A stretch of DNA of 40,123 nt, taken from positions 1 to 40,123 of the IMG/VR virus record IMGVR_UViG_2537562231_000015. One strand, 5' to 3'. This stretch comes from a virus. Lineage: Duplodnaviria; Heunggongvirae; Uroviricota; Caudoviricetes. Shown one piece after another: positions 14,249 through 38,547 of the stretch. Position 1 is the stretch's first letter, and each line of letters opens with the position of its first letter. Under the pieces are notes generated by a model. The model saw only the letters and a list, made by a program, of their open reading frames with translations. It was not told the origin of the DNA and did no database searches. A program made the translations under genes and the position numbers.

Positions 14249-14368
14249 AACTTATCCTCAGAGACAACAAATTGATAATAATGTCCTATTCAAATGGCTA
14301 ATGATATGACATAAAAAAAGAAAAATGCAATGTACTACAAGAATATCAGTAAACGTTTCTAGCGCGCG

Positions 14369-14387: not shown

Positions 14388-14432
14388 TGCCCGCTTTATG
14401 TAGTGGTTTTCATGCAGGTGCATGATCTACGC

Positions 14433-15822: not shown

Positions 15823-15832
15823 AAAAGTCACC

Positions 15833-16021
15833 TCAACTGATGACATCCATTGAGCGGTTGTATTCGTGGGTTCTGATTTTTGCCATGAGTTCATCTGTTA
15901 GTTCAGAAACCCACTGCAAAGCCAGCCCCTTCTCTTCATCACTACACTCACTAGCCGCTACAAGCTTAAGAAAAAAATCAATGCGCTGGAGCTTCAAAGA
16001 CTCCAAAAAATAGTCCTGCAT
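15833..16021 (-). CDS. Small protein, possible Tum-like antirepressor N-terminal module
   Basis: 62-aa ORF starting MQDYF with GGAGGAAAG SD; LexA box immediately upstream; overlaps the DinI-like start by 11 nt in another frame. Confidence 0.45.
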   Translation of the reverse strand: MQDYFLESLKLQRIDFFLKLVAASECSDEEKGLALQWVSELTDELMAKIRTHEYNRSMDVIS

Positions 16022-23072: not shown

Positions 23073-24086
23073 GTGATCTTAATCTTAAATATGAAACCTA
23101 ATTTAATTTCACGTAAACAGTACCAACACCTCAAAAATGAGTTAAATAGACTTGAGAGCTTACCATATAGACGAGGAAACAACCCAACCAACCTCAGAAT
23201 ATTAAAACTAAGAGAAGATCTAACAAACTCTCTTGTTGAATCCAGAAAAAGAAATTCAAAAAAAATTAATAGAGGAAATGTTAGCTGTATAATATGCAAG
23301 AAAAATTTCAAAAGTGCTCATGGCCTATATGAGCACTATCGCGCCAAGCATAGCAATATGATTGAACACCCTACCTCATTGTTTAATAAAGAAATAAATG
23401 GCAATACAACACTGCTTGAAAGCATTTCGCATCCTGTCACAAAAGGTATACCAATAGCAGAACACGATAAAAAAATATCATCCATTACGCTAAACAGGGA
23501 AACTAAATATTTCAATGTAGATGCGTATAATCTGGCATGCCTTTCATTAACAAAAAGTGAAGCAATAAAAATCGCTAAAGATGAATTATTATCAAGGCAG
23601 TTTCTTGGACAAAAAAACATTCTAGAACCTACTCTACCGCCAGTCATATTTATAAATCCCTCTGATACAATTAGTATACCAGTTGTCACAAAAGGCAATA
23701 CTCATCTGCAAACAATATTACAGCGTGACTCTGGCGAACAGGTTGACTTTAAAAAAAGGGTTCTAAAAAACTTCTCAAATGTATGCGCAATAACAGGTTA
23801 CAACCTCCCAGTATTGCAGGCATGTCACCTTGAACCATTTTCTCAGACCCAAAACCATAGAACCAACAATGGAATACCTCTTGAACCTACCCTTCATGCC
23901 TTGCTTGACCGAGGTCTACTAGCCATACATCCAGATAATTTAACTATTCATTTTGCTATCGATTGCTATTACAAAAATATATATGAAGGAAAAAACATCA
24001 AACCTCATAAGATTGATTTAGATAAAAATTCACTGCTAATAATTTGGAAGAACTTTCTTTTGAATGTTAAAAACAGCCAACCGTAA
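23073..24086 (+). CDS. Zinc-finger plus HNH-like nuclease domain protein (cargo gene)
   Basis: 337-aa AT-rich ORF; C2H2-like CIICKKNF..HGLYEHYRAKH near N-terminus; C-terminal CAITGYN...QACHLEPF...NGIPL...HALLDRGLLAI resembles HNH (HNH_2-like) fold. Confidence 0.55.
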   Translation: MILILNMKPNLISRKQYQHLKNELNRLESLPYRRGNNPTNLRILKLREDLTNSLVESRKRNSKKINRGNVSCIICKKNFKSAHGLYEHYRAKHSNMIEHPTSLFNKEINGNTTLLESISHPVTKGIPIAEHDKKISSITLNRETKYFNVDAYNLACLSLTKSEAIKIAKDELLSRQFLGQKNILEPTLPPVIFINPSDTISIPVVTKGNTHLQTILQRDSGEQVDFKKRVLKNFSNVCAITGYNLPVLQACHLEPFSQTQNHRTNNGIPLEPTLHALLDRGLLAIHPDNLTIHFAIDCYYKNIYEGKNIKPHKIDLDKNSLLIIWKNFLLNVKNSQP

Positions 24087-24213
24087 GTTAGCCTAAAATT
24101 GGCGACAACTTGGCGGCAGAGCATTAAAAATGCGTAAAACGGATAAACACAGGATAATAGTAACACACTGTTTTTGAACGCAAACTACTGTTTTCATTGT
24201 ATTAAAAATAGTA

Positions 24214-24258
24214 TGTAGGAATTTCGGACGCGGGTTCAACTCCCGCCAGCTCCACCAC
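24214..24258 (+). ncRNA. ssrA: 3'-terminal fragment of tmRNA gene ssrA (T-arm and acceptor 3' strand ending CCA); attachment-site core
   Basis: ATGTAGGAATTTCGGACGCGGGTTCAACTCCCGCCAGCTCCACCA matches the E. coli ssrA 3' end from memory; upstream sequence is unrelated AT-rich DNA, so only the 3' portion is present. Confidence 0.75.
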
Positions 24259-24283
24259 TTGCTCTTCCGGATACGTCCGGAGA

Positions 24284-24316
24284 AATCCTGAAAGCCCGCA
24301 TAGCACAAGCTCTGCG
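24284..24316 (+). terminator. Intrinsic terminator downstream of ssrA 3' end
   Basis: GCCCGCA...TGCGGGC stem followed by TTTTTTG. Confidence 0.6.
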
Positions 24317-24367
24317 GGCTTTTTTGTGTCTACCGTTGTCCGAGGATATCCAGCTAAATCCAGTGAT

Positions 24368-24417
24368 TATTGGTATACGTTTAGGTATACGGTAGGATGT
24401 ATACCTAAACGCGTATA
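24368..24417. repeat. Integrase arm-type repeats (GGTATACG family), attL side of the P4-like element
   Basis: ATTGGTATACGTTTAGGTATACG plus inverted GTATACCTAAACGCGTATACC; near-identical 23-mer recurs at 38313-38336. Confidence 0.45.
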
Positions 24418-25051
24418 CCAATTCATGAAGGAGCGGCCAAATTGGCAAGAACGACACGCCCCCTGACCAACACAGAAGTACTGCGCGCTAAAGCGTTAGA
24501 AAAGGATCTAACGTTGCATGATGGCGATGGTCTTTTTCTACTCGTTAAAACGAACGGTAAGAAGTTATGGCGTTTCCGTTATCAACGTCCGGCAACAAAG
24601 CAACGGACAATGATGGGGCTAGGAGCCTTCCCAGCCCTTTCACTTGCTGACGCCCGACGCTTAAGAGCGGATTACCTTTCCTTGTTAGCCAACGGAATTG
24701 ACCCGCAAATTCAAGCTGAAATTGCAGAGGAACAGCAGCAAATCGCACAGGACAGTATTTTCTCGACGGTCGCCGCTAATTGGTTTCAGCTCAAAAGCAA
24801 AAGTGTTACCCCTGATTATGCAAAAGATATTTGGCGCTCATTGGAAAAAGATGTATTCCCCGCCGTTGGTGAGATGCCCGTTCAGCAGATCAAAGCTAGA
24901 ACATTGGTCGAAGCACTTGAGCCAGTCAAAGCTCGTGGGGCATTAGAGACTGTACGTCGTCTGGTGCAACGCATTAACGAAATAATGATTTATGCGGTTA
25001 ACACTGGCTTGATTGATGCAAACCCAGCATCAGGTGGGTAATGACTCCAAC

Positions 25052-25555
25052 TTATTGATAGTGTTTTATGTTCAGATAATGCCCGATGACTTTGTCATGC
25101 AGCTCCACCGATTTTGAGAACGACAGCGACTTCCGTCCCAGCCGTGCCAGGTGCTGCCTCAGATTCAGGTTATGCCGCTCAATTCGCTGCGTATATCGCT
25201 TGCTGATTACGTGCAGCTTTCCCTTCAGGCGGGATTCATACAGCGGCCAGCCATCCGTCATCCATATCACCACGTCAAAGGGTGACAGCAGGCTCATAAG
25301 ACGCCCCAGCGTCGCCATAGTGCGTTCACCGAATACGTGCGCAACAACCGTCTTCCGGAGCCTGTCATACGCGTAAAACAGCCAGCGCTGGCGCGATTTA
25401 GCACCGACATAGCCCCACTGTTCGTCCATTTCCGCGCAGACGATGACGTCACTGCCCGGCTGTATGCGCGAGGTTACCGACTGCGGCCTGAGTTTTTTAA
25501 ATGGCGGAAAATCGTGTTGAGGCCAACGCCCATAATGCGGGCGGTTGCCCGGCAT
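25052..25555 (-). CDS. insB: IS1 InsB
   Basis: 167-aa ORF matching IS1 InsB. Confidence 0.9.
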
Positions 25556-25749
25556 CCAACGCCATTCATGGCCATATCAATGATTTTCTGGTGCGTACCG
25601 GGTTGAGAAGCGGTGTAAGTGAACTGCAGTTGCCATGTTTTACGGCAGTGAGAGCAGAGATAGCGCTGATGTCCGGCGGTGCTTTTGCCGTTACGCACCA
25701 CCCCGTCAGTAGCTGAACAGGAGGGACAGCTGATAGAAACAGAAGCCAC
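25474..25749 (-). CDS. insA: IS1 InsA
   Basis: 91-aa [26 protein letters not shown]... matching IS1 InsA. Confidence 0.9.
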
Positions 25750-26411
25750 TGGAGCACCTCAAAAACACCATCATACACTAAATCAGTAAGTTGGCAGCAT
25801 CACCCATCAGGTGTTGGCATGGCCTTCGAAAAGCCAAAAAAACAAAACATGCCGACGCTTCGACCTGAAGAATTACCAAAGCTGATGCGTTCTTTAGTCA
25901 TGTCAAATCTGTCTATCCCGACTCGCTGTCTAATTGAATGGCAACTCCTGACTCTTGTGCGCCCTTCTGAAGCCTCCAGTACTCGGTGGGAAGAAATCGA
26001 TCTTCATGCAAAGCTCTGGACGATTCCTGCCGAACGGATGAAGGCTAAACGGGAACACATAATTCCTCTATCATCTCAGGCATTAGAGATTCTTAATGTG
26101 ATGAAGCCTATTAGTGCTCATCGTGAATATGTTTTTCCGAGTCGGAATGACCCAAAGAAACCAATGAACAGTCAGACTGCAAATGCAGCTTTAAAACGTA
26201 TTGGTTTTGGCGGAAAATTAGTTGCCCATGGATTACGTTCAATAGCAAGTACAGCCATGAATGAAGCTGGATTAAATCCTGATGTTATCGAGTCTGCCTT
26301 AGCCCACAGTGATAAAAATGAAGTTAGAAAAGCATACAATCGTTCTACTTATCTCGTGCAGCGAATTGAATTGATGGATTGGTGGGGAGAATACGTTAAA
26401 AATAAAAGGGG

Positions 26412-28121
26412 TTAGCCCCCCTTTTTTCTATACAATCTCAAGCACTCGTCCAATTCAATAAGTTGTGAATTACTTAATCGTTCTTTTATATAATAAAATA
26501 CATCTTTTACTGAAGCAATTTCTCTCATCGCTCTATTGCCCATTAAAACATAGTCTTGATACATTCCAATTCTGAAGAATGAATTTGCTGCGCAAGCCAA
26601 CATAATTACTTCGGTCATTGCAGGGAGATTTAAACGATTTGGCTTAAATTTATTTTTATCATATTCGTTAAAACAAGACAAAAAGTTTCTCAATGTTTTT
26701 ATATCAGCAATACCATTTGAAACATTAGTAAATGATTTATATAAATATGGAGAGCATGAATACCAATATATATCACAAACAAGTATAGAACTTCGCTTGT
26801 TCGCAAACTCAAGCCATTCACCCTTATTTCCATTATGCATTAAGTTATATAAGAAATAAAAATGCAACAACCCATTTTTATATTCTTTTTTGGATTGATC
26901 ATAGATTATCTCAATTTTGTCCATGATAGACTGCAAATCAGTGACTTCGCCTAAATTTAACATATTTAGGTATTCACTAAACCACTTCGCTATACTTTTA
27001 GCTGTAAATCCGTCTGCATTCCAGAGCCAATATTGTGCAGATATCTCTGCAACCATTACACCCGATGTTTCCATCACCCAATTAACAGACTCTCTTTTTT
27101 GACTGTAGTTTTTACGGCAAAAATTTATTATCACATGGCGAAGAAGTCGAAGCAATCCAGAGTAACTGAAGTGAGGTTCGCCAAAAAGAACCAGACAATC
27201 ACCAACAGGATTGTAGGCTTTCGAGATCATTGCATCAAGTGGCTTAAGCTCATGGACAAAAGAAGACCTGATTTTGTATAAATTATCTAAAGCTCTACTA
27301 AGGAAGCTATAGCGGATTGGATATCTCTCTGTTTCATTGAAATAATTTTCTTCAAGATTTTTCAGTATAAAATCTTTGAACCTTTTTTGTAATCTGAATT
27401 GTTTGCCTTCAATAAGTATTGATTTAATTTTACAAACATCCTCACCAGGCATATGCTCAAATACAGACTCTAATTCACCTCTGGTTTTTTGATCGTAGTC
27501 ATCCCAATCAGACTTATAGTTATCATTTCTTTGAGACAAAGACTCCAAGGCATAGACTAACATGGAATAAGTCAGGTCAAAGTTGGTTGACAATGATTCT
27601 TTTGAATCACTAATTATTTTTAACGCTGCCATTAAAGATTTAAAGGCAGATCTATTTAGATTCACTACATCTTTAATAAAAGCAGAAAACCCAGAGACAT
27701 CATCAAATGAAACTCTTCGATTAATCTCCACTAAATATGGGGCAACTTCAAGCGCAATTTTTGAGTGATGTTTATTAAAATTTGATAATGCACATATTTT
27801 TTTAACCGATTCTTTTTCTACTCTAGCCACACAATCAAAATAGAATTCCCATAATAAAATAAATTGTTGCCTATAATCCTCATCACCAGCCCTAACTACG
27901 ACTCCAGCTTCAATTCGTTCTGGTTTTTCGGTCAGGAGAGTATAGTTTACCACATAACAGTTTATACCATCATGACTTATTTTATTTGCTTTAAAAAGAG
28001 GGGAGGTGTTTTCCACCGAGAAAGACACATCAACATTTGAATAAAAAACAAATGTGCCATCGTGTTTTTCTATTTTATCTAAATCAAAGAACACTCCAGC
28101 TGATATCTGAAACATACTCAT
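26412..28121 (-). CDS. Hypothetical 569-aa protein in the P4 int-cos variable slot (candidate anti-phage defence)
   Basis: Long AT-rich ORF with no recognised family; contains an R-x4-H motif (RSSFVH); sits where P4 carries gop/beta/cII. Confidence 0.6.
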   Translation of the reverse strand: MSMFQISAGVFFDLDKIEKHDGTFVFYSNVDVSFSVENTSPLFKANKISHDGINCYVVNYTLLTEKPERIEAGVVVRAGDEDYRQQFILLWEFYFDCVARVEKESVKKICALSNFNKHHSKIALEVAPYLVEINRRVSFDDVSGFSAFIKDVVNLNRSAFKSLMAALKIISDSKESLSTNFDLTYSMLVYALESLSQRNDNYKSDWDDYDQKTRGELESVFEHMPGEDVCKIKSILIEGKQFRLQKRFKDFILKNLEENYFNETERYPIRYSFLSRALDNLYKIRSSFVHELKPLDAMISKAYNPVGDCLVLFGEPHFSYSGLLRLLRHVIINFCRKNYSQKRESVNWVMETSGVMVAEISAQYWLWNADGFTAKSIAKWFSEYLNMLNLGEVTDLQSIMDKIEIIYDQSKKEYKNGLLHFYFLYNLMHNGNKGEWLEFANKRSSILVCDIYWYSCSPYLYKSFTNVSNGIADIKTLRNFLSCFNEYDKNKFKPNRLNLPAMTEVIMLACAANSFFRIGMYQDYVLMGNRAMREIASVKDVFYYIKERLSNSQLIELDECLRLYRKKGG

Positions 28122-28412
28122 TCCTTAAACTCAATTGGATCAATCTATCTATATTAACGGATATATTAACAGAACAAAATAATCCTATGCAGTAGCCTAG
28201 CTACTCAAACAATTTCATTACGTTTGTAAGCAATACTCTCCCCACTACACCGTCGAAAGGCGGCTATTTACCACTCCCCTCAGAAGCCATCAGCGGCACA
28301 CTTACCAACATTACCGCGCGACGTCAGGCACCTCCCCTATCCCCCCCAGCCCCTTCCCGACGGTGCTCGGGCGCAAAAAACATTAGTAACGAGCACCAAC
28401 CGGGGGCGCGCA

Positions 28413-28431
28413 GTGCTTTCCCCGCCTCGCC
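28413..28431 (-). other. cos site of the P4-like satellite (identical to P2 19-nt cohesive end)
   Basis: Minus strand reads GGCGAGGCGGGGAAAGCAC exactly, within AAAGCGGGCGGGCGAGGCGGGGAAAGCACTGCGCGC. Confidence 0.8.
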
Positions 28432-28532
28432 CGCCCGCTTTGCGGGGCGGTTTTAATGCAGTTGCACTGACACGCTCAGACCGCGCCGGGAATGGCGCGG
28501 TCTGCAGAAAATGAGGCAGGGAAACGCATGCA

Positions 28533-28566
28533 AAGCCATGCACCTTATCGATGCATGGCTTTTTTC
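28533..28566. terminator. Hairpin with flanking A/T runs between cos and psu
   Basis: AGCCATGCA...TGCATGGCT stem followed by TTTTTT on the plus strand and preceded by an A-run (possible bidirectional terminator). Confidence 0.4.
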
Positions 28567-28595
28567 AGTAAAAACGGGCGGATTTTCGGGGAATT

Positions 28596-29168
28596 TTACA
28601 CAGACTGACGTGATGCCAGTTGCGCACTTTTACGCGAAAAAATCATGTTCTGCGCAGGGGTGAATTTTTCACGGCTGTCATCCACCGAAGCCGCGTCAGG
28701 CCTGAATCCGATGGTCGTTAAAATGTCGCTATCCTGTGCGGAATAATTAATTTTTTCACCCTTCGCAAGCCAGGACAGGAGGGCTTCACGCAGGGCATCT
28801 GTGGCACGCTGTATGGCACAGTTTCGGGCAATGGCCGTCAGATCACTGTAGCCCATCAGCTCCGGTGCCAGTGCCGCCGCCAGTGCTGTGCCGTGCTGCT
28901 GCATAAAATCATTCAGCCGGTCGCGGATGCTGATGTGCTGAACGGCTTCATGCGAACGAATATAACGACCGGCGGCCTGATTCACCTGCCATTTTCTGAC
29001 TTCGATAATATTGCGTAATTCGTCCAGGCGACTGACGTTTCTGCCTTCTCCTGACAGAAGCCGCAGATATTCCTGTTCGGCCGCAGCCAGCTCATTTTTG
29101 CGTTGCAGCCATGCTGCTTTGTTATTCTGACAGGTGTCAAAGGCCTGCTGTAAGGCTGTGCTTTCCAT
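28596..29168 (-). CDS. psu: Psu (polarity suppression / capsid decoration) protein
   Basis: 190-aa ORF, same length as P4 Psu, in the sid-delta-psu-cos arrangement. Confidence 0.85.
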   Translation of the reverse strand: MESTALQQAFDTCQNNKAAWLQRKNELAAAEQEYLRLLSGEGRNVSRLDELRNIIEVRKWQVNQAAGRYIRSHEAVQHISIRDRLNDFMQQHGTALAAALAPELMGYSDLTAIARNCAIQRATDALREALLSWLAKGEKINYSAQDSDILTTIGFRPDAASVDDSREKFTPAQNMIFSRKSAQLASRQSV

Positions 29169-29241
29169 CGTTATCTCTTTCTCATCATGCTGAAGAATAA
29201 AAATACGGTGTGTGGCGACGGCCGGTGTTAACCGGCAGCCC

Positions 29242-29742
29242 TCATTCCAGACGCAGCGAATATGATTGTGTTTTTAACCGTACTGGCGGCAGTTCCTGTT
29301 TTTCATGCAGGCGTTCTGCCAGTTCGTCCGGCGTGACCGGGCGGACAATGAAGCGGGTGATGGTCTGAAGCGTTTTAAACACCAGACCACAGCCCGGATC
29401 CGTGCACACATAAAAACGCTCGGTGACTTCCTGAGACAGACGCCGCGATGTTCTTGACAGTGCAAGGCCTTTACATCTCCGACAACAATATCCGGTAACA
29501 AGCATTCTTTTCGGGCGTTTCATACTGCCGGAGGCCGACGTCAGTGAATCGCGGTATCTCTGTTTGCCTGAAATGTATTCCATTCCTGAATCTTTACTGT
29601 CAGAGAAAAAGCTTTCACTCGCTTCAAATGTCGCAGAGCAATAAATATTCCGGCACTGTGCAATCATTATCTTGGTGCCATCGTCCATGAAATGTGCGCG
29701 ACGGGTGTGAGCAACATGTCCACACGACGGGCAGTAAATCAT
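29242..29742 (-). CDS. delta: Delta late-gene transactivator (tandem Ogr-like zinc finger)
   Basis: 166-aa ORF starting MIYCPSCGH with C-x2-C...C-x4-C pattern, a second Cys cluster further on; same length as P4 Delta. Confidence 0.85.
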   Translation of the reverse strand: MIYCPSCGHVAHTRRAHFMDDGTKIMIAQCRNIYCSATFEASESFFSDSKDSGMEYISGKQRYRDSLTSASGSMKRPKRMLVTGYCCRRCKGLALSRTSRRLSQEVTERFYVCTDPGCGLVFKTLQTITRFIVRPVTPDELAERLHEKQELPPVRLKTQSYSLRLE

Positions 29743-30473
29743 GACAGCAGTCCTCTGGCCTTAAGCTCTGCTCCCTGCTGGTCTATTTTGTCCTGCCACA
29801 CCTTGCGCTGTGCCGGTGTGCCTGCCACCTCATAATCCATGTGCGGGAGTGTTGCCGCTGACAGTCCGGTCAGCCGGAGAACCGGCTCGCCGGTGAGGCT
29901 GATTTGCATCTGTTTAATTTTCTGTTCCAGCGATGATTTCACCTGCTGCATGACAGCCTTTTCCGGTGCGACGTAGCCCTGATGGCCGGTGGTGTTGGCG
30001 AGCGGATTTTCCTGTACCAGGATACTCAGATGCATTGCCCGGACAAGCGCCTCACAGGTTTCATTCAGGGCGTGTTCCAGCTCATGCTCTGCATACAGAC
30101 TCAGAAGGTGATGATGTGCCTTCCGGTAGGCGGTGGCCGTGCTGTCACACGCCCCTTTCAGGCGTTCACGTTCAAAATTCAGCACCACGGCCAGATTGTC
30201 ATATTCCTGTACCAGCTCCCGGCGTGCCACGCGCTCAATGTGGCGCTGTTTCAGCTCGTCGCTCAGGACACCACCGGCTGCACGAAAGGCTGTGCGCCAG
30301 TCATCAGCGTCATTTCCGTCGGCCTGCGCCAGCGCATTTTTTTCCTGCTCTGCCCGTTCAATGGCCTTGACGGTCTCATCCATCAGTCGGGCGTTCTCAA
30401 GATGAGCGGCTCTGGCCTTTTCCAGTTGTGCCAGTGCGGGTTGCAGATATTCAGGGATGGTGTTGTCAGACAT
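29739..30473 (-). CDS. sid: Sid capsid size-determination protein
   Basis: ORF 29739..30491 trimmed to MSDNTIPEYLQ (244 aa, P4 Sid length); overlaps delta start. Confidence 0.85.
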   Translation of the reverse strand: MSDNTIPEYLQPALAQLEKARAAHLENARLMDETVKAIERAEQEKNALAQADGNDADDWRTAFRAAGGVLSDELKQRHIERVARRELVQEYDNLAVVLNFERERLKGACDSTATAYRKAHHHLLSLYAEHELEHALNETCEALVRAMHLSILVQENPLANTTGHQGYVAPEKAVMQQVKSSLEQKIKQMQISLTGEPVLRLTGLSAATLPHMDYEVAGTPAQRKVWQDKIDQQGAELKARGLLS

Positions 30474-30516
30474 TTTCCGGCTCCTCGTCACTTCAGATTA
30501 AGAAAATTGTGACGTA

Positions 30517-30573
30517 CACCGGACAACAACACGACGCATTGCAGATGTGCCAGCCCTGACACAGGAGACTCAT
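30517..30573. promoter_or_regulatory. Two TGT-N12-ACA dyads in the sid upstream region (candidate Delta/Ogr sites for Psid and a divergent late promoter)
   Basis: TGTgacgtacaccggACA at 30517-30534 and TGTgccagccctgacACA at 30556-30573. Confidence 0.35.
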
Positions 30574-30639
30574 CCTCAGACCGGCAAGCCAGGAAAAGGT
30601 CGCAGGAAAAACCGGCTTACTGTTTGTTTTTTTATATTT

Positions 30640-30770
30640 TACTGTTCACCTCTGTTCACCATAAGAAAAAAGATAAGTAATACAGTAAGTTAAAGGGTGA
30701 ACAATCGCAGTAATGACTGTTCACCGTCTGTTCACCACTGTTCACCCGCTCATGGACTTTTTGTGCTGTT
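30640..30770. repeat. P4-type replication origin iterons (TGTTCACC octamers)
   Basis: Six copies of TGTTCACC or its complement at 30643, 30653, 30696, 30718, 30729 and 30739. Confidence 0.6.
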
Positions 30771-31025
30771 TACTACTGTTTGTTTTTATTAATTCGCCGT
30801 GAATGAATAAGAAGAAACGATTTGTATTTCACTATAAAAATTACGAATTGCATTAAGTGGCTTTAAATGACTTTAAGTGGGAATGAACAAAAAACACACA
30901 GTCATTGTAAGGCTGCCGGAACAAATCCCCCCTGTTGCGTCTGCCAAAAATATTCACAAAATAAAGCGCTACCCGAAGCCGGACGGACTTATCCGGTGCT
31001 GTATGGACATTAACGAGGTAGCCCG

Positions 31026-31292
31026 ATGCAAGCTGTTTTTTCTTCCCCGTCTCCCGCCCCTGTGACGCCACTGATGCCGCTGCCGGACATCACGCAGGAG
31101 CGTTTTTTACGTCTGCCGGAAGTGATGCACCTGTGCGGCCTGTCACGCTCGACCATCTATGAACTCATCCGTAAGGGGGAATTTCCGCCGCAGGTGAGTC
31201 TTGGCGGTAAAAATGTGGCCTGGCTGCACTCTGAAGTCACCGCATGGATGGCCGGACGCATTGCCGGACGCAAACGGGGGTACGACGCATGA
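31026..31292 (+). CDS. vis: Vis/AlpA-family excision regulator (P4 orf88 equivalent)
   Basis: 88-aa ORF with AlpA-like HTH ([27 protein letters not shown]); GAGGTAG SD. Confidence 0.75.
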
Positions 31293-31325
31293 TGATGCCC
31301 GCTCTGCAAAAACTCCCTTTTTCTG

Positions 31326-31355
31326 GCTTGCCTTTTTCCGGCATTTGCGGATATA
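31326..31355 (+). promoter_or_regulatory. Candidate sigma70 promoter (PLE-like)
   Basis: TTGCCT, 18-bp spacer, TATAGT; upstream of the RNA-immunity region. Confidence 0.35.
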
Positions 31356-31510
31356 GTTTTTCCGCTGCCGCAAAATCGGCAGCCGGGCGTAGGAACCCGA
31401 GTTACTTCAAGGCGACATATGACGCGCCATGCGTCTTTTTTTACGTCGTTGCTTCGGCACACCTGTTTTTCTGGCTGTGGTTTTTAAACCGTAGCCTCTG
31501 TCAGATAATG

Positions 31511-31590
31511 GTGGTCCGGGCGGGGCAGCCTTCGGGCTGGCCGGTTTCCTTGAAGGCCGGTATTCCTACCCCCGTCCGGGCTACCACCCA
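31511..31590 (+). ncRNA. cI: Candidate P4-type CI immunity RNA
   Basis: Structured GC-rich segment containing CCTTGAAGG and TATTCCTAC, complementary to repeated GTAGGAAC...ACTTCAAGG elements at 31385-31412 and 31595-31640. Confidence 0.45.
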
Positions 31591-31645
31591 TGAGCGTAGG
31601 AACTCCAGTGGTAGCTGTAACTGTTACTTCAAGGAGGCTGCCATC

Positions 31646-31843
31646 ATGGCTACAACCCTTACCCCCTCACACCCTGAATTTGTCTTTGTGTTTGCGGCTG
31701 TCCGTCGCGCAGGCCGTCATCCCCGTATCTGTATGCTTCGCACCGTCGCCGGTGATGAACGCAGCGCCCGCCGTTCCCTTGTCCGTGACTATGTGCTCTC
31801 CCTTGCTGCCCGTCTGCCGGTGGTGGAGGTGTCCCGTGCGTAA
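31646..31843 (+). CDS. Small protein downstream of the immunity RNA
   Basis: 65-aa ORF with AAGGAGG SD that overlaps the downstream target repeat. Confidence 0.4.
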
Positions 31844-32100
31844 TAAAAAAGCCCCTCAGACCGTCTCAGCACGTCATGACGCCCGTGAACACCTCAGCAT
31901 TGAGGCTTACCATAAGCTCAACCGCGCCAGCGCCGTATCCCAGTTTGTTGGGGGTGATTTGATTCACCGTGAACTCTCCGGCCTGCATCAGCTCTACATT
32001 CCGCATATTTTCAGCGTAAGCGTAAACTGACCGCCGTATGTAGCCATCAGACGAGAATTGGTAACTTAGACGCCCATCTGATATAGACGGACATCTAAGT

Positions 32101-32526
32101 ATGGAATTACAGGACTGGCGAAAAGAACCTCGTAAAAACTATTCGAATGAATTCAAACTTCGTATGGTGGAACTGGCATCACAACCTGGAGCTTGTGTTG
32201 CACAGATTGCACGTGAAAATGGCGTCAATGATAATGTTATTTTCAAATGGCTCAGGCTCTGGCAGAACGAAGGGCGTGTTTCGCGGCGTCTTCCGGTAAC
32301 GACCTCTTCTGACACTGGCGTTGAATTATTACCTGTAGAAATAACGCCGGATGAGCAGAAAGAACCTGTGGCGGCCATTGCGCCGTCTTTATCCACTTCC
32401 ACTCAGACCAGAGTCAGTGCCAGTTCCTGCAAGGTGGAATTCCGTCACGGTAACATGACGCTGGAAAATCCATCGCCAGAGCTGCTCACAGTGTTGATCC
32501 GTGAACTGACCGGGAGGGGAAGATGA
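32101..32526 (+). CDS. IS66-family accessory protein (orf1/TnpA)
   Basis: 141-aa ORF, first gene of the IS66 three-gene array. Confidence 0.8.
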   Translation: MELQDWRKEPRKNYSNEFKLRMVELASQPGACVAQIARENGVNDNVIFKWLRLWQNEGRVSRRLPVTTSSDTGVELLPVEITPDEQKEPVAAIAPSLSTSTQTRVSASSCKVEFRHGNMTLENPSPELLTVLIRELTGRGR

Positions 32527-32873
32527 TCTCACTCCCATCAGGTACCCGTATCTGGCTCGTTGCCGGCGTTACCGATATGCGTAAATCCTTCAACGGACTG
32601 GGAGAACAGGTACAACATGTGCTGAATGATAATCCCTTCTCCGGTCACCTGTTTATCTTCCGTGGCCGACGGGGTGACACCGTCAAAATTCTTTGGGCTG
32701 ATGCTGATGGTCTGTGCCTGTTCACCAAACGCCTGGAGGAAGGCCAGTTTATCTGGCCTGCGGTACGTGACGGCAAGGTATCCATTACCCGCTCGCAACT
32801 GGCAATGCTCCTCGATAAGCTGGACTGGCGTCAGCCAAAAACATCCAGCCGTAACTCACTGACAATGTTGTAA
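32523..32873 (+). CDS. IS66-family Orf2 (TnpB)
   Basis: 116-aa ORF overlapping orf1 stop; conserved IS66 orf2 size. Confidence 0.85.
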   Translation: MISLPSGTRIWLVAGVTDMRKSFNGLGEQVQHVLNDNPFSGHLFIFRGRRGDTVKILWADADGLCLFTKRLEEGQFIWPAVRDGKVSITRSQLAMLLDKLDWRQPKTSSRNSLTML

Positions 32874-32903
32874 AAAACTCCTGACCGCATTATAAAAACG
32901 GTC

Positions 32904-34517
32904 ATGAGTCAGAAATACCTCATTCGCATCGCAGAGCTGGAAAGGTTGCTCTCTGAGCAGGCTGAAGCCCTCCGTCAGAAAGACCAGCAACTGAGTCTGG
33001 TTGAAGAGACGGAAGCCTTCCTGCGCTCTGCACTGACACGTGCCGAAGAAAAGATCGAAGAAGATGAACGGGAAATAGAACATCTGCGGGCTCAGATAGA
33101 AAAACTGCGCCGGATGCTGTTCGGTACCCGTTCTGAAAAACTGCGTCGTGAAGTTGAACTGGCTGAGGCTCTGCTGAAACAACGTGAACAGGACAGCGAT
33201 CGTTACAGTGGGCGGGAAGACGATCCTCAGGTTCCCCGCCAGTTGCGACAGTCGCGCCATCGTCGTCCGTTACCGGCACACCTTCCCCGTGAAATACACC
33301 GCCTGGAGCCAGAAGAAAGCTGTTGCCCGGAGTGTGGCGGTGAGCTGGATTATCTGGGGGAAGTCAGCGCTGAACAGCTGGAACTGGTGAGCAGTGCCCT
33401 GAAAGTGATCCGCACAGAACGGGTAAAAAAAGCCTGTACAAAATGTGACTGTATTGTTGAAGCACCGGCGCCGTCCCGCCCGATAGAGCGTGGTATCGCG
33501 GGCCCCGGATTACTTGCCCGCGTGTTAACGGGAAAATACTGCGAACATCTGCCACTGTATCGTCAGAGTGAAATCTTTGCCCGCCAGGGTGTCGAACTGA
33601 GCCGGGCCTTACTCTCCAACTGGGTTGACGCGTGCTGCCAGTTAATGACACCGGTGAATGATGCCCTGTACCGTTATGTAATGAACACCCGCAAGGTTCA
33701 CACTGATGACACACCGGTAAAGGTACTGGCACCGGGTCAGAAAAAGGCGAAAACAGGGCGTATCTGGACGTATGTCCGGGATGATCGCAATGTGGGTTCG
33801 TCATCTCCTCCAGCGGTCTGGTTCGCGTACTCGCCGAACCGGCAGGGGAAACACCCGGAGCAACACCTCCGCCCCTTCCGGGGTATCCTGCAGGCGGATG
33901 CGTTCACAGGTTACGACAGGTTGTTCAGTGCAGAACGTGAAGGTGGTGCACTGACAGAAGTTGCGTGCTGGGCCCATGCCCGGCGAAAAATCCACGATGT
34001 ATACATCAGCAGCAAAAGTGCGACGGCAGAAGAAGCCCTGAAGCGAATCAGTGAACTGTACGCCATCGAGGATGAAATACGGGGATTACCGGAGTCAGAG
34101 CGTCTTGCCGTCAGGCAGCAGCGAAGCAAAGTGTTACTGACGTCGCTGCATGAATGGATGGTGGAGAAGAATGGTACGCTGTCGAAAAAATCCAGACTGG
34201 GCGAAGCGTTCAGCTATGTACTGAATCAGTGGGATGCCCTCTGTTATTACAGTGATGACGGTCTGGCGGAGGCGGATAATAATGCTGCGGAAAGAGCGCT
34301 TCGTGCAGTCTGTCTCGGAAAGAAAAACTTTATGTTCTTTGGCAGCGATCACGGCGGCGAGCGTGGAGCACTGTTGTACGGGCTGATCGGCACCTGCCGT
34401 CTGAACGGTATCGATCCGGAAGCGTATCTGCGCCATATCCTGAGCGTACTGCCGGAATGGCCTTCCAACCGAGTTGACGAACTCCTGCCATGGAACGTAG
34501 TACTCACCAATAAATAA
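32904..34517 (+). CDS. IS66-family transposase (TnpC)
   Basis: 537-aa ORF with N-terminal coiled coil, zinc-finger-like CPECGG and C-terminal DDE region. Confidence 0.9.
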   Translation: MSQKYLIRIAELERLLSEQAEALRQKDQQLSLVEETEAFLRSALTRAEEKIEEDEREIEHLRAQIEKLRRMLFGTRSEKLRREVELAEALLKQREQDSDRYSGREDDPQVPRQLRQSRHRRPLPAHLPREIHRLEPEESCCPECGGELDYLGEVSAEQLELVSSALKVIRTERVKKACTKCDCIVEAPAPSRPIERGIAGPGLLARVLTGKYCEHLPLYRQSEIFARQGVELSRALLSNWVDACCQLMTPVNDALYRYVMNTRKVHTDDTPVKVLAPGQKKAKTGRIWTYVRDDRNVGSSSPPAVWFAYSPNRQGKHPEQHLRPFRGILQADAFTGYDRLFSAEREGGALTEVACWAHARRKIHDVYISSKSATAEEALKRISELYAIEDEIRGLPESERLAVRQQRSKVLLTSLHEWMVEKNGTLSKKSRLGEAFSYVLNQWDALCYYSDDGLAEADNNAAERALRAVCLGKKNFMFFGSDHGGERGALLYGLIGTCRLNGIDPEAYLRHILSVLPEWPSNRVDELLPWNVVLTNK

Positions 34518-34655
34518 GCGTCAATACGGTGCTCCGTTGACGCTTACTTTTCAGCTACCTGAATGAAGATATTGATTTTGTGCTGAATGAGCTGAAAGCC
34601 AAAGGCCTGTGCCGCGATTTTCTCGCCCAGCAGAAAGACCGGGGAGACAGGACGC

Positions 34656-35111
34656 ATGTTTGATTTTCCCCAGCCCGGTGAGATTTACCGTTCTGCCGGT
34701 TTTCCCGATGTGGCCGTGGTCGGCATTCTGGAAGACGGTATTCCGTGGGAAATGCCGTACCGCTGCCCGGACATTGTCTGGAACCCGTACCGCCGTAAAT
34801 TCAGTATCCTTGTGCGTATCCTCGCTGACGGGCGCACCACAGACATCCCGCTGGGGCGTTTTCTGCGGGAATTTACCTGTGACCGTCCTGACCTGTTCAA
34901 ACGCAGCCCCGTAAACCGGCATGCGGTACTGAAAGAAATGGCCGGAGACCCGGAATTACAGAAATGGCGGGAGAAATATCTGGATATTTACCCGCAGGAC
35001 ACTGTTCCGGTCAGCCGGGCGGCACCGGTGGCGCGGGAATGGCGGGAAATTCCCCGCACGGAGCCTGACCCGGAAATCACCCCGGATAACAGTTACCGCA
35101 ATTATCTGTAA
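34656..35111 (+). CDS. P4 orf151-like protein
   Basis: 151-aa ORF, same length and position as P4 orf151. Confidence 0.55.
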   Translation: MFDFPQPGEIYRSAGFPDVAVVGILEDGIPWEMPYRCPDIVWNPYRRKFSILVRILADGRTTDIPLGRFLREFTCDRPDLFKRSPVNRHAVLKEMAGDPELQKWREKYLDIYPQDTVPVSRAAPVAREWREIPRTEPDPEITPDNSYRNYL

Positions 35112-35246
35112 TTAAAAAACGACACCCGAAAAATTAAATGTGCGTATTCGCGCAGGGATACGCACGTCTTCAGGAGACGCAGATATGCCTTATCAGTTAA
35201 TGCAACCGGCACGGAATGCAGTCATCTGTCACAGGGAGGAAAGCAA

Positions 35247-35567
35247 ATGAAAACACCCTTACCGCCCGTCTTACGCGCTGCCCTTTACCGTCGCGCTGTC
35301 GCCTGTGCCTGGCTGACCGTGTGCGAACGTCAGCACCGCTACCCGCATCTCACCCTTGAGTCACTGGAGGCGGCCATCGCCGCTGAGCTGGAAGGCTTTT
35401 ATCTGCGCCAGCACGGTGAGGAAAAAGGGCGTCAGATAGCCTGTGCCCTGCTGGAAGATTTAATGGAATCCGGCCCCCTGAAGGCCGCGCCGTCGCTGTC
35501 CTTTCTCGGGCTGGTTGTGATGGATGAACTCTGTGCCCGTCACATAAAAGCGCCGGTACTGCACTGA
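35247..35567 (+). CDS. P4 orf106-like protein
   Basis: 106-aa ORF directly upstream of alpha. Confidence 0.55.
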
Positions 35568-35581
35568 AGGAGAACAACACC

Positions 35582-37915
35582 ATGAAAATGAACGTAACCG
35601 CCACCGTCAGCCATGCGCTCGGCCACTGGCCGCGTATTCTCCCGGCGCTGGGGATTCAGGTGCTGAAAAACCGTCATCAGCCCTGTCCGGTCTGTGGCGG
35701 GAGTGACCGCTTCCGTTTTGATGACAGGGAGGGGCGCGGCACCTGGTACTGCAATCAGTGTGGTGCCGGTGACGGCCTGAAACTGGTTGAAAAGGTGTTT
35801 GGTGTCTCCCCGTCCGACGCGGCCGCAAAGGTGGCTGCCGTGACCGGCAGTCTGCCCCCGGCTGACCCGGCAGTGACGGCCGCCGCCGTTGCTGAAACAG
35901 ACGCTGCCCGGAAGAACGCCGCCGCACTGGCACAAACCCTGATGGCAAAAACCCGTCCCGGAACCGGTAACGCCTACCTGACCCGCAAGGGCTTTCCCGG
36001 CCGGGAATGCCGGATGCTGACCGGCACACACAGAGCCGGTGGCGTGAGCTGGCGCGCCGGTGACCTTGTGGTGCCACTGTATGACGACAGCGGCGAACTG
36101 GTTAACCTTCAGTTAATCAGTGCTGACGGCCGTAAGCGTACCCTGAAAGGCGGACAGGTCAGGGGCACCTGTCACACCCTTGAAGGACAGAATCAGGCCG
36201 GAAAACGTCTGTGGATAGCGGAGGGATACGCGACCGCACTTACCGTACATCACCTGACCGGTGAAACGGTGATGGTGGCGCTTTCTTCCGTGAACCTCCT
36301 TTCTCTGGCCAGCCTTGCCCGGCAGAAGCATCCGGCCTGTCATATTGTCCTTGCTGCTGACCGTGACCTCAGCGGTGACGGCCAGACAAAAGCCGCCGCA
36401 GCCGCAGATGCGTGTGAAGGTGTTGTTGCCCTGCCGCCGGTCTTCGGTGACTGGAATGATGCCTTCACGCAGTACGGCGGGGAAGCCACCCGTAAGGCCA
36501 TTTATGATGCCATCCGGCCACCGGCTGAAAGCCCGTTCGACACCATGAGCGAAGCGGAGTTTTCCGCCATGAGTACCAGCGAAAAGGCCATGCGTATCTA
36601 TGAGCATTACGGCGAGGCGCTCGCGGTCGATGCCAACGGCCAGCTTCTGTCCCGTTATGAAAATGGTGTCTGGAAGGTGCTGCCACCACAGGACTTTGCC
36701 CGGGATGTGGCCGGGCTGTTTCAGCGGCTGCGCGCGCCGTTCTCCTCCGGGAAGGTGGCCTCCGTGGTGGACACCCTGAAGCTGATTATTCCGCAGCAGG
36801 AAGCCCCCTCCCGCCGCCTGATTGGCTTTCGTAACGGCGTGCTCGACACGCAGAGCGGCACGTTCCACCCGCACAGTCCGTCACACTGGATGCGCACCCT
36901 GTGCGATGTGGATTTCACCCCGCCGGTGGAAGGGGAAACGCTGGAAACCCACGCCCCCGCGTTCTGGCGCTGGCTTGACCGTGCCGCCGGTGGTCGTGCG
37001 GAAAAACGCGACGTGATTCTGGCCGCACTGTTTATGGTGCTGGCAAACCGCTACGACTGGCAGCTCTTTCTGGAGGTGACCGGTCCCGGCGGCAGCGGCA
37101 AAAGTATCATGGCCGAAATAGCCACCCTGCTGGCCGGGGAAGATAACGCCACGTCGGCCACCATTGAGACGCTGGAATCCCCGCGTGAACGTGCCGCGTT
37201 AACTGGCTTCTCACTGATACGCCTGCCGGACCAGGAAAAATGGAGCGGCGACGGAGCCGGACTCAAGGCCATCACCGGCGGCGATGCGGTGTCCGTTGAC
37301 CCGAAATACCGGGATGCGTACTCCACGCACATCCCGGCGGTGATTCTGGCCGTGAACAATAACCCGATGCGCTTCACCGACCGCAGCGGCGGCGTGTCAC
37401 GCCGGCGGGTGATTATTCACTTCCCGGAACAGATAGCCCCGCAGGAGCGCGACCCGCAGCTTAAGGACAAAATCACCCGCGAGCTGGCGGTCATCGTGCG
37501 TCACCTGATGCAGAAGTTCAGCGACCCGATGCTCGCCCGGTCACTGCTTCAGTCCCAGCAGAACTCAGACGAGGCGCTGAACATCAAACGGGATGCCGAC
37601 CCGACGTTTGATTTTATCGGCTATCTGGAAACCCTGCCGCAGACCAGCGGCATGTATATGGGGAACGCGAGTATCATCCCGCGCAATTACCGTAAATACC
37701 TCTATCACGCCTATCTGGCCTACATGGAGGCAAACGGCTACCGGAACGTACTCAGTCTGAAAATGTTCGGGCTGGGGCTGCCGGTGATGCTGAAGGAATA
37801 CGGACTGAATTACGAGAAGCGCCATACCAAACAGGGGATACAGACCAACCTGACGCTGAAAGAGGAAAGCTACGGCGACTGGCTGCCAAAATGTGACGAC
37901 CCTGCAACAACCTGA
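35582..37915 (+). CDS. alpha: Alpha primase-helicase (P4 replication protein)
   Basis: 777-aa ORF, same length as P4 alpha; N-terminal zinc-binding primase motif CPVCGGSDRFRFDD...WYCNQCG. Confidence 0.9.
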   Translation: MKMNVTATVSHALGHWPRILPALGIQVLKNRHQPCPVCGGSDRFRFDDREGRGTWYCNQCGAGDGLKLVEKVFGVSPSDAAAKVAAVTGSLPPADPAVTAAAVAETDAARKNAAALAQTLMAKTRPGTGNAYLTRKGFPGRECRMLTGTHRAGGVSWRAGDLVVPLYDDSGELVNLQLISADGRKRTLKGGQVRGTCHTLEGQNQAGKRLWIAEGYATALTVHHLTGETVMVALSSVNLLSLASLARQKHPACHIVLAADRDLSGDGQTKAAAAADACEGVVALPPVFGDWNDAFTQYGGEATRKAIYDAIRPPAESPFDTMSEAEFSAMSTSEKAMRIYEHYGEALAVDANGQLLSRYENGVWKVLPPQDFARDVAGLFQRLRAPFSSGKVASVVDTLKLIIPQQEAPSRRLIGFRNGVLDTQSGTFHPHSPSHWMRTLCDVDFTPPVEGETLETHAPAFWRWLDRAAGGRAEKRDVILAALFMVLANRYDWQLFLEVTGPGGSGKSIMAEIATLLAGEDNATSATIETLESPRERAALTGFSLIRLPDQEKWSGDGAGLKAITGGDAVSVDPKYRDAYSTHIPAVILAVNNNPMRFTDRSGGVSRRRVIIHFPEQIAPQERDPQLKDKITRELAVIVRHLMQKFSDPMLARSLLQSQQNSDEALNIKRDADPTFDFIGYLETLPQTSGMYMGNASIIPRNYRKYLYHAYLAYMEANGYRNVLSLKMFGLGLPVMLKEYGLNYEKRHTKQGIQTNLTLKEESYGDWLPKCDDPATT

Positions 37916-37921
37916 CCCACC

Positions 37922-37947
37922 TGACCGGCATCTGCCGGTCTTTTTTT
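37922..37947 (+). terminator. Intrinsic terminator after alpha
   Basis: GACCGGCA-tct-GCCGGTC stem followed by TTTTTTT. Confidence 0.7.
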
Positions 37948-37954
37948 ATCCCGA

Positions 37955-38270
37955 CCTCCCCCGAAGGTGAACAATCCACTGTTCACCCTTCACCGTATAT
38001 TCACCCGTTATCACACTGAAATTAAAAGAGAAAAATGAAAGGTGAACAGTGTGAACAATCAAATCAAAAAAAACTTTTTTCTCCCTGTGTGATTTCAGTA
38101 CGGGGGATTAATCACCAGTAGGAGTCACACCGGCAGAATGCCGGAGGTGAAGAATCGAATGTTCACCCTTCACCCATTATTCACCACCTATCATACTGAA
38201 ATAAAAGGAGAAAAAAGAAAGGTGAACAGTGTGAACAGTTCTTTCGAAAAAAAATTTTTTTCCTGTACGA
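37955..38270. repeat. crr-like cis replication region: two ~125-bp direct repeats with TGTTCACC/GGTGAACA iterons
   Basis: Units at about 37955-38080 and 38140-38268 align along their length, separated by about 60 bp. Confidence 0.65.
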
Positions 38271-38312
38271 TATAGCATCAATCCAAGTAAAAATGCGCTT
38301 TCATTTCACATT

Positions 38313-38336
38313 AACTTACAGCCATTGGTATACGAT
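38313..38336. repeat. Integrase arm-type repeat, attR side of the P4-like element
   Basis: ATTGGTATACGATTAGGTATACG, one mismatch from the copy at 24368-24390. Confidence 0.45.
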
Positions 38337-38547
38337 TAGGTATACGCACAAAAACTAAATTAAACAAAATCATTAAAAATCAAAGCAATAAAGCATTTAT
38401 TCAAACTCCGCCAGCCAATCATGATTGGACGGTGTAAGGACAACACCAACAAAAACAGGAAGTTAGAAGTCTCAGCAAAACACCGACCAGACGGTGAGGA
38501 GACATAAAAGGATACGCAAAGGAGCCGCGGCTCCTGGTAACATGAAA

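Follow-up and report, generated by a model that had tools for sequence, protein, structure and literature searches.

When a satellite prophage carries insertion sequences (ISs) in its integrase and helper-derepression genes and its cargo gene is untouched, has it been fixed in the chromosome for the sake of that cargo, or is it simply beginning to decay? This question is raised by a P4-like element at positions 24214-38415 of a viral record of 40,123 nt (hereafter the window, meaning the whole stretch of DNA that was analysed). The original prediction described it as a satellite immobilised as an island by two recent and simple insertions, one of IS1 in the integrase and one of an IS66-family element in an epsilon-like gene, with its cargo kept.

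A P4 satellite behind a P2-family prophage

The core proteins, all 98%-100% identical to those of phage P4, show that the element is, as far as sequence can identify it, a genuine P4 satellite prophage. The markers are found together in the order of P4 (integrase, psu, delta, sid, alpA/vis, epsilon, the Ash-family ORF, and alpha), with seven genes at 98%-100% identity and with the integrase and epsilon genes present, both interrupted (Table 1). The predicted ends proved accurate, since position 24214 falls in the 3' copy of ssrA (attL) and position 38415 in the attR core. The satellite is located at this copy of the ssrA 3' end, which was left by a P2-family prophage integrated directly upstream. 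A scan for tRNA and tmRNA genes found nothing in the window because ssrA is represented there by no more than its final 48 bp; the site was recognised using annotated relatives. A P4 satellite with IS-interrupted genes is an ordinary finding, already known in kind.

The modules of P4 biology thought to be intact are so. The Sid, Delta, and Psu proteins, like those of alpha, orf106, orf151, and vis, are full length and 98%-100% identical to their P4 counterparts, and cos, ori, and crr could all be located. The cos region (146 bp) is 97.9% identical to the P4 cos junction and has the 19-nt end of both P4 and P2, which makes it compatible with the terminase of a P2-type helper. The iteron of the origin occurs 14 times in the window, compared with 1.4 expected, in clusters at 30643-30746 and 37966-38228, so both elements of alpha-dependent replication, ori and crr, are present with their iterons. 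The immunity is of the RNA-based type, with a cI/C4 RNA and targets of the seqA/seqC type: the Rfam models of C4 (86.1 bits), isrK (73.4 bits), and c4-a1b1 (49.6 bits) all matched above their gathering scores.

The prophage at 1-24209 had been overlooked. It was assigned to the P2 family from its matches to Phage_cap_P2 (3.5e-152) and Phage_GPA (2.2e-127), its gpP-type terminase, and a gene order that follows that of annotated relatives. The cos end of this prophage differs at 5 of 19 positions, and the small subunit of its terminase shares about 50% identity with that of P2. A repressor of the C type of P2, on which epsilon is known to act, was not found in this prophage (1-24209). Its repressor is a 186-type CI (210 aa, PF07022 and PF16452), with genes encoding CII, Apl, and a DinI/Tum-like protein (antirepressor) alongside. 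P4 transactivates a 186 prophage but is not known to derepress it. Since the neighbour has a 186-type CI and a DinI/Tum-like gene, the loss of epsilon may be of no consequence there.

Table 1. Features of the satellite and of its surroundings in the window.
Feature	Position	Strand	Details
P2-family prophage, right-hand part	1-24209		186-type regulatory circuit; tail, lysis, capsid, terminase, and portal genes; outside the satellite
Prophage GmrSD cargo	12467-14248		
Prophage cos	about 14362-14422		
Prophage DinI/Tum-like gene	15589-15894		
Prophage gpA	16175-18589		
Prophage CI	21385-22017		
Prophage Int	22019-23050		intact
Prophage HNH cargo	23073-24086		
ssrA (tmRNA) 3'-end copy	24210-24257	+	shared att site: attR for the prophage, attL for the satellite
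Satellite attL core	24235-24250		TTCAACTCCCGCCAGC
Left-arm integrase arm-type repeats	24372-24419		GGTATAC motifs, two direct and two inverted
Integrase, 5' part	24442-25036	+	codons 1-198; arm-binding and central (core-binding) domains
IS1	25037-25804	-	768 bp; insA/insB on the minus strand
Integrase, 3' part	25814-26415	+	catalytic domain
Cargo gene	26412-28115	-	567 aa; conserved family, function uncharacterised; int-cos hotspot
cos region	28406-28551	-	19-nt cohesive end GGCGAGGCGGGGAAAGCAC at 28413-28431
psu	28596-29168	-	190 aa, 98.9% identical to P4
delta	29242-29742	-	166 aa, 98.2% identical to P4
sid	29739-30473	-	244 aa, 99.2% identical to P4
ori	30643-30746		six type-1 iterons TGTTCACC
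vis/alpA (P4 orf88)	31026-31292	+	88 aa, 98.9% identical to P4
Ash-family ORF	31244-31843		matches PF10554
Immunity region	31328-31591	+	PLE-like promoter 31328-31357; isrK and a1b1 target RNAs 31351-31441; cI/C4 RNA 31504-31591
epsilon, 5' part	31836-32015	+	codons 1-60
ISEc23-type IS66-family element	32016-34547	+	2532 bp; tnpA 32101-32526, tnpB 32523-32873, tnpC 32904-34517
epsilon, 3' part	34556-34663	+	codons 61-95 and stop codon
orf151	34656-35111	+	99.3% identical to P4
orf106 (DUF5375)	35247-35567	+	100% identical to P4
alpha primase-helicase	35582-37915	+	777 aa, 99.0% identical to P4
crr	37961-38260		two 120-bp repeats with iterons
Right arm	38327-38415	+	arm-type repeats 38327-38345; attR core TTCAAACTCCGCCAGC 38400-38415
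Second IS66-family element (ISCro1-like)	39354-40123	-	interrupts autotransporter gene ypjA; runs off the window; outside the satellite

The insertions in the integrase and epsilon genes

The integrase is split as predicted. The inserted element has the features of IS1, namely a length of about 768 bp, imperfect terminal inverted repeats (ends GGTAATGACTCC.../...GCAGCATCACC), ORFs for InsA and InsB of 91 and 167 aa, and a perfect 9-bp target duplication (CATCAGGTG, at 25028-25036 and 25805-25813). When IS1 and one copy of the repeat are removed in silico, the reading frame is whole and encodes a protein of 398 aa identical to WP_000124719.1. The break follows codon 198, in the linker between the core-binding and the catalytic domains. 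Tyrosine integrases of the lambda/P4 type generally require the arm-binding and the catalytic domains on one chain for recombination. Judged from the structure of the gene, a cut at this place makes it very likely that the satellite has lost self-catalysed excision, and leftover activity from the two fragments is unlikely. The integrase family consists of one unbroken piece in essentially all of the 60 rows that were sampled (342 genomes carry it).

The gene interrupted by the IS66-family element, previously called epsilon-like, turned out to be the true epsilon of P4. Removal of the IS and of one copy of its perfect 8-bp duplication (TTTTCAGC, at 32008-32015 and 34548-34555) restores the frame of a protein of 95 aa that is identical to WP_001244665.1 of Escherichia coli SCPM-O-B-12142, shares 94 of its 95 residues with P4 epsilon (NP_042039.1), and matches Pfam PF25738 ('Derepression') over its full length. 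The IS itself shows the tnpA-tnpB-tnpC organisation, GTAAGCG... termini, and 8-bp duplication of the IS66 family; its proteins match the Pfam profiles HTH_Tnp_1, TnpB_IS66, and DDE_Tnp_IS66, and the NCBIfam profile transpos_IS66 (1.5e-135). The name ISEc23 is the one that PGAP gives to the same element in strain RM9387. The view that mobility and helper-derepression genes were knocked out together holds in that int and epsilon are both interrupted, but epsilon acts as an antagonist of the C repressor of P2 and has no mobility function, being required only for waking a P2-type prophage (PMC7552001, PMC9942202). As a side observation, the Pfam 'Ash' marker that satellite finders take as 'epsilon' is intact here and the true epsilon is broken, a mismatch that calls for caution in the automated calling of satellites.

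The alpha ORF is full length, as originally predicted, but the ISEc23-type element separates alpha from the only promoters known for it (PLE/PLL), and the right end of the IS combines a strong hairpin with a UUUU tail (folding energy of -20.3 kcal/mol, z = -3.8). An insertion of 2.5 kb at this place and with such an end is likely to have a polar effect on the replication genes.

Recent decay, residual mobility, or domestication

The original prediction proposed a comparison with related strains, and this identified IS-free alleles of the satellite at ssrA in E. coli SCPM-O-B-12142 (NZ_CP144928) and in about 14 other complete genomes, including PSS-08-2. In these alleles int, epsilon, and ypjA all lack an IS. 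The allele of SCPM-O-B-12142 has the same cargo, att sites, and ypjA flank as the present one, and abuts ssrA directly with no intervening prophage; PSS-08-2 has the tandem of prophage, ssrA', and satellite observed here. Once restored, our region is 99.94% identical to NZ_CP144928 over 11.8 kb (two substitutions and three small indels, all intergenic), and the restored Int and epsilon proteins are identical to those of SCPM-O-B-12142. The insertions can thus be regarded as recent and simple, as had been suggested, because the target duplications are perfect and the remainder of the satellite is coding-identical to the IS-free allele.

A third IS, the ISCro1-like element in ypjA, was inserted 0.9 kb past the end of the satellite. 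None of the three junctions (int, epsilon, and ypjA) is present among 5,426 complete E. coli genomes. The only full-coverage match to the IS66 junction, in RM9387, is due to a separate insertion. It belongs to a P4-like element other than ours, located at a tRNA-Leu gene, and in this related satellite ISEc23 lies between orf151 and orf106. Similarly, the only match to the IS1 junction, in strain 600055, is an independent insertion, 3 bp off. We also ruled out a composite transposon made of the two IS66-family copies, since one is ISEc23 and the other ISCro1-like, with different termini. A transposase is listed under the match in 6 of the 25 closest matches to the satellite.

A third private IS in ypjA, together with the absence of the junctions elsewhere, argues for random hits in an IS-active genome: the three insertions fit lineage-specific IS activity better than selection on the satellite, and there is no sign of the element having been tamed (domesticated). 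We consider it quite probable that the locus shows a mobile element at an early stage of neutral decay in such a genome, and not an evolved or selected arrangement. Three ISs have moved into this 16-kb stretch in one lineage, IS1 into the linker of int, ISEc23 into codon 60 of epsilon, and the ISCro1-like element into ypjA. Deprived of a contiguous Int, the satellite would be unable to excise and circularise by itself, and would consequently neither replicate as an episome nor serve as a substrate for a terminase of the P2 type, an enzyme that requires cos DNA in circular form. Epsilon, cut at residue 60 of 95, would no longer derepress a P2-type prophage. Transcripts from PLE/PLL can reach orf151, orf106, and alpha only through the 2.5-kb IS, which probably lowers the expression of these replication genes. 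Neither IS of the satellite touched the att sites, cos, ori, crr, the cI RNA, or the sid-delta-psu operon, and Int provided in trans would probably rescue the element. The cargo would have been spared merely because it was not struck.

Could the satellite still be mobile? This would require Int in trans from an element of the same type elsewhere or its reconstitution from the fragments, a dispensable epsilon, and expression of alpha by read-through or from an outward promoter borne by the IS, a combination that we regard as unlikely. Much of the machinery is in place, with attL, attR, the arm repeats, vis, cos, ori, and crr all intact, an ISEc23 oriented like the operon, and an epsilon needed only to wake P2-type prophages. 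The integrase was broken in an interdomain linker, and its catalytic fragment retains an in-frame ATG (at 25819) with AGGTG ahead of it. These observations must be weighed against the one-chain requirement of such integrases, the hairpin and U-tract at the IS end, and the frequency of this int type, with no more than one or two copies in a genome (median of 1 place). The original prediction named an intact second integrase acting in trans as a reason to abandon immobilisation. There is one, that of the prophage, encoded 1.2 kb upstream of the satellite and using the same ssrA site, but its sequence comparison with the satellite Int revealed no significant similarity (E = 0.03-0.05). The only other integrase of the window would differ in arm-site specificity and, being unrelated in sequence, is unlikely to substitute for the satellite Int.

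The notion of an immobilised island that keeps its cargo thus stands as regards the split Int and the very likely loss of self-excision, but the intact cargo is uninformative. The cargo gene makes up ~16% of the 10.9-kb element, two random insertions would miss it with a probability of ~0.71, and the same gene is interrupted by IS1 in the sister strain SCPM-O-B-7615. Its product is a candidate defence protein: 21 homologues all keep the R283-x4-H288 motif unchanged, a homologue at 43% identity bears the UniRef name 'Apea-like HEPN domain-containing protein', and there is a weak match to the Cas13-ApeA profile of PADLOC (23.9 bits, E = 7e-6), above which nothing was found among the defence models of PADLOC, Pfam, and NCBIfam. 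It is not DARNA/PD-T7-3, which has 456 aa and an N-terminal HEPN at R117/H122.

One could nevertheless propose that the ISs were selected because they lock a useful defence gene in the chromosome, preventing excision or the waking of the helper, and that selection keeps the cargo intact. The position of the cargo in a known P4 defence hotspot (PMC9122126), its conserved motif, and the fact that the two insertions struck int and epsilon and not elsewhere are in line with this domestication. We find it very unlikely, given the chance sparing of the cargo and the IS1 within it in SCPM-O-B-7615, the restriction of the junctions to one genome, the lack of any divergence accumulated after the insertions, the third IS in an unrelated neighbour gene, and the wholeness of int in nearly all other carriers. 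Strain 600055 can be invoked on both sides. Its independent IS1, 3 bp away and in the same orientation in a homologous integrase only ~85% identical, could be taken as a sign of selection, but after this insertion the strain lost the whole island, cargo included.

The same pair of insertions hints at a broader reading, in which IS insertion in the int of tmRNA-borne P4 satellites would be a recurrent and site-preferred way of fixing defence genes beside P2-family prophages in E. coli. The window would then capture domestication under selection at its outset. The independent insertion in 600055 shows that the IS1 site in int is not a random target; a target preference of IS1 explains two nearby insertions equally well, and we give this broader reading little credence. 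Finally, an assembly artefact, in which IS copies were misplaced by the collapse of repeats, can be practically dismissed: multi-copy IS1 and IS66 elements often confuse or break short-read assemblies, but each IS has the exact duplication typical of its family (9 and 8 bp) at both junctions, which a misjoin would not create, and the flanks, once joined, match the IS-free allele perfectly.

Significance and comparison with known systems

On its own, this case is of small importance. As the neutral decay that we favour, it offers a clean and datable example of the onset of decay in a phage satellite, with the IS-free ancestor allele at hand for comparison. It is also a natural construct for studying the need of P4 Int in cis for mobilisation, the polarity on alpha of an IS in the left operon, and the role in defence of the 567-aa R-x4-H cargo family.

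The cargo resembles ApeA, a single-protein HEPN abortive-infection tRNase (Gao et al. 2020; bioRxiv 10.64898/2026.01.26.701840), in that both are large single proteins in which an R-x4-H motif is invariant. The split HEPN domain of ApeA is at the C-terminus (catalytic R502/R521), whereas the motif of the cargo is central (R283/H288) and followed by ~280 residues of helical repeats. The location matches the hotspot of P4-like satellites, where int is separated from cos/psu by variable cargo, reported to include HEPN-domain genes (Rousset et al. 2022, PMC9122126; Moura de Sousa & Rocha 2021, PMC8628076). These studies describe type B and type C variants with missing or pseudogenised core components; here, components were lost by IS insertion, a route that the two papers do not discuss (neither uses 'transposase' or 'insertion sequence').

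The closest known system is satellite phage P4 itself (NC_001609 / X51522), with which the element shares the order of psu-delta-sid, ori, vis, PLE/cI RNA, epsilon, orf151, orf106, alpha, and crr, as well as the six iterons of ori, the two repeats of crr, and an identical 19-nt cos end. It differs from P4 by its integrase, just 38% identical, and by its target, the 3' end of ssrA. The attachment site of P4 is leuX. In the satellite, one 567-aa gene takes the place of the gop/beta/cII cargo of P4, and int and epsilon carry ISs.

A P4 copy and a P2-family prophage at ssrA

The element at 24214-38415 of the window is a copy of satellite phage P4 in the prophage state. Comparison with the P4 reference (NC_001609) gave protein identities of 99.0% for alpha (777 aa), 100% for orf106, 99.3% for orf151, 98.9% for vis/orf88, 99.2% for sid, 98.2% for delta, and 98.9% for psu, and the DNA aligns with P4 4291-8003 and 8608-11624 at 98.1-98.4% identity. 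The satellite differs from P4 in its integrase, which is only 38% identical, and in the 'hotspot' between int and cos, where it carries one 567-aa gene (the cargo) and P4 carries gop/beta/cII. Its att sites, arm repeats, cos, ori, and crr are unbroken, as is the sid-delta-psu operon. The P4 comparison agrees with the original prediction that, outside the genes hit by insertion sequences (ISs), alpha, sid, delta, psu, cos, ori, and crr look intact.

Positions 1-24209 hold about two-thirds of a P2-family prophage, its right-hand part, with a control region of the 186 type (CI with PF07022/PF16452, CII, an Apl-like gene, and a DinI/Tum-like gene). Prophage and satellite are arranged in tandem at the tmRNA gene, since one copy of the ssrA 3' end serves both. 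GGTATAC arm repeats are present on both satellite arms. Islands in tandem are well known from tRNA and tmRNA genes (PMC10111431). Among 5,426 complete E. coli genomes, 21 share the prophage-satellite junction, one of them PSS-08-2, which has the same satellite without any IS. The prophage also carries two accessory genes (see table), of which the one encoding a 337-aa HNH-domain protein is unlike the gene found in the same place in related prophages. In strain ET734 (NZ_CP100922, 1740-49218), the related prophage of the P2 family is apparently present twice in tandem at ssrA, and many of the genes are frameshifted; this could be a genuine tandem duplication or an artefact of assembly or sequencing quality.

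Features of the prophage, the satellite and their flank (window coordinates)
Feature	Position	Strand	Details
Prophage accessory gene	12467-14248	-	GmrSD-type (type IV restriction) protein; between portal gene and cos
Prophage cos	14362-14422		end GGCGTGGCGGGGATACGAG
Prophage integrase	22019-23050		343 aa, intact
Prophage accessory gene	23073-24086	+	HNH-domain protein; between int and attR
ssrA 3' end copy	24210-24257		48 bp; attR of prophage and attL of satellite
IS1	25037-25804		768 bp; CATCAGGTG at each flank
Cargo gene	26412-28115	-	567 aa
Satellite cos junction	28406-28551		146 bp at 97.9% identity to P4; exact 19-nt end GGCGAGGCGGGGAAAGCAC at 28413-28431
ori	30643-30746		six iterons
PF10554 ORF	31244-31843		199 codons, intact
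cI/C4 RNA, isrK, a1b1 target	31351-31591		Rfam; cI/C4 RNA 86 bits
epsilon, split	31836-34663		Pfam family PF25738
IS66-family element	32016-34547		2532 bp; GTAAGCG termini; tnpA/B/C by Pfam and NCBIfam; TTTTCAGC at each flank
crr	37961-38260		two repeats
Satellite att core	38400-38415		imperfect repeat
ISCro1-like IS66-family element	39354-40123	-	interrupts autotransporter gene ypjA, 0.9 kb past attR; runs off window

Insertions in int and epsilon

Removing in silico each IS with one copy of its target duplication restored, in frame, a 398-aa integrase and a 95-aa epsilon, both identical to their counterparts in E. coli SCPM-O-B-12142 (NZ_CP144928), which carries the satellite at ssrA free of IS. 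The 95-aa protein matches P4 epsilon at 94 of 95 residues and is covered over its full length by the Pfam family 'Derepression' (PF25738). The IS1 break in Int follows residue 198 and falls exactly into the gap between the central (107-198) and catalytic (213-377) domains; the IS66-family element, named ISEc23 by PGAP where it occurs in strain RM9387, breaks epsilon after codon 60. Over 11.8 kb, the restored sequence and the IS-free allele differ by two substitutions and three small indels, all intergenic. This confirms in full the observation that the two elements split these genes with clean duplications, and indicates that the insertions are recent. IS-free alleles, which the original prediction proposed for comparison, were found in about 15 complete genomes. 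The junctions of all three ISs in the window are absent from the 5,426 complete E. coli genomes.

Satellite-finding pipelines use the Pfam 'Ash' family (PF10554) as 'epsilon' marker (PMC8628076). This profile has no match in the true epsilon and matches instead the intact ORF overlapping the cI RNA region; such pipelines would call the satellite epsilon-positive despite its broken epsilon.

Expected effects on mobility

Because lambda/P4-type tyrosine integrases require the arm-binding and catalytic parts on a single chain, the satellite should have lost self-excision, and because P2-type terminases package circular cos DNA, it should not be packaged. Int provided in trans should rescue it, since all other cis elements and the sid-delta-psu operon are intact. 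An intact second integrase, envisaged in the original prediction, does exist in the neighbouring prophage, but it has no sequence relationship to the satellite integrase (best BLASTP E = 0.026) and would be a poor candidate for such rescue. The ISEc23 copy sits between PLE/PLL and orf151-orf106-alpha, and at its end lies a hairpin of -20 kcal/mol with UUUU after it (z = -3.8); the alpha ORF is intact but is probably poorly expressed downstream of this IS.

The epsilon gene is indeed broken, but it is not a mobility gene: the one function known for it is binding of the P2 C repressor to wake a P2 prophage (PMC7552001, PMC9942202), a role also given by Liu et al. 1997/1998 as relayed in PMC1904268. 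The neighbour lacks a repressor of the C type; the CI of 186 and the C of P2 are different kinds of protein (PMC1904268). Judging from its sequence, the neighbouring prophage might be unable to serve this satellite as helper: its head and terminase proteins share 48-64% identity with their P2 and 186 counterparts alike, with only ~50% for the terminase small subunit against either phage, and its cos end differs from that of P4/P2 at 5 of 19 positions. The two cos sites share one orientation and lie ~14 kb apart.

Cargo retention and known satellites

Homologues of the cargo number 54, the most distant at 31% identity, and come from Enterobacterales, Vibrionaceae, Aeromonas, and other taxa; R283 and H288 (R-x4-H) are invariant in 21 aligned members. 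The cargo has no match in Pfam, NCBIfam, or PHROGs; PADLOC gave a weak Cas13-ApeA match (E = 7e-6), and UniRef names one homologue 'Apea-like HEPN'. Its architecture is unlike those of ApeA, which has its HEPN domain at the C-terminus (bioRxiv 10.64898/2026.01.26.701840), and DARNA, which has it at the N-terminus. On this thin HEPN evidence, the cargo can be classed only as a candidate defence gene of the HEPN type.

We do not think that the pattern of cargo kept and mobility lost is meaningful. The cargo occupies ~1.7 kb of the 10.9-kb element, and two random insertions would both miss it with a probability of ~0.71. In the sister strain SCPM-O-B-7615, IS1 lies within the same cargo gene, and int and epsilon are intact. 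A transposase is annotated under the match in 6 of the 25 closest matches, and the int family is unbroken in essentially all sampled carriers (60 rows sampled from 342 genomes). The IS pattern, including the ypjA insertion and the absence of the three junctions from other complete E. coli genomes, is consistent with transposition at random in a lineage with active ISs. Slightly against this reading, strain 600055 (NZ_CM129037, 2526-3830, compared with 25028-25060 of the window) has an independent IS1 only 3 bp away from the insertion site of the satellite; it is another IS1 variant with the same orientation, and its host integrase is only ~85% identical to that of the satellite. The paired sites suggest that the interdomain linker of the integrase may be a preferred IS1 target. 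The remainder of that island is lost, cargo too.

Another argument against a meaningful pattern comes from RM9387 (NZ_CP009104, 10210-12886), where a different P4-like satellite, at a tRNA-Leu gene, has the same ISEc23 between its orf151 and orf106. The orientation is the same, and this is a second independent ISEc23 in the P4 left operon.

The original description of an immobilised island keeping its cargo holds for the split int and the expected loss of self-excision, but cargo survival is uninformative and the phrase exceeds what the evidence permits. Earlier work has described P4-like satellites, the defence hotspot between their int and cos, and variants in which core genes are missing or pseudogenised (PMC9122126, PMC8628076, PMC10085698); the present case is an ordinary event, correctly described and already known in kind.
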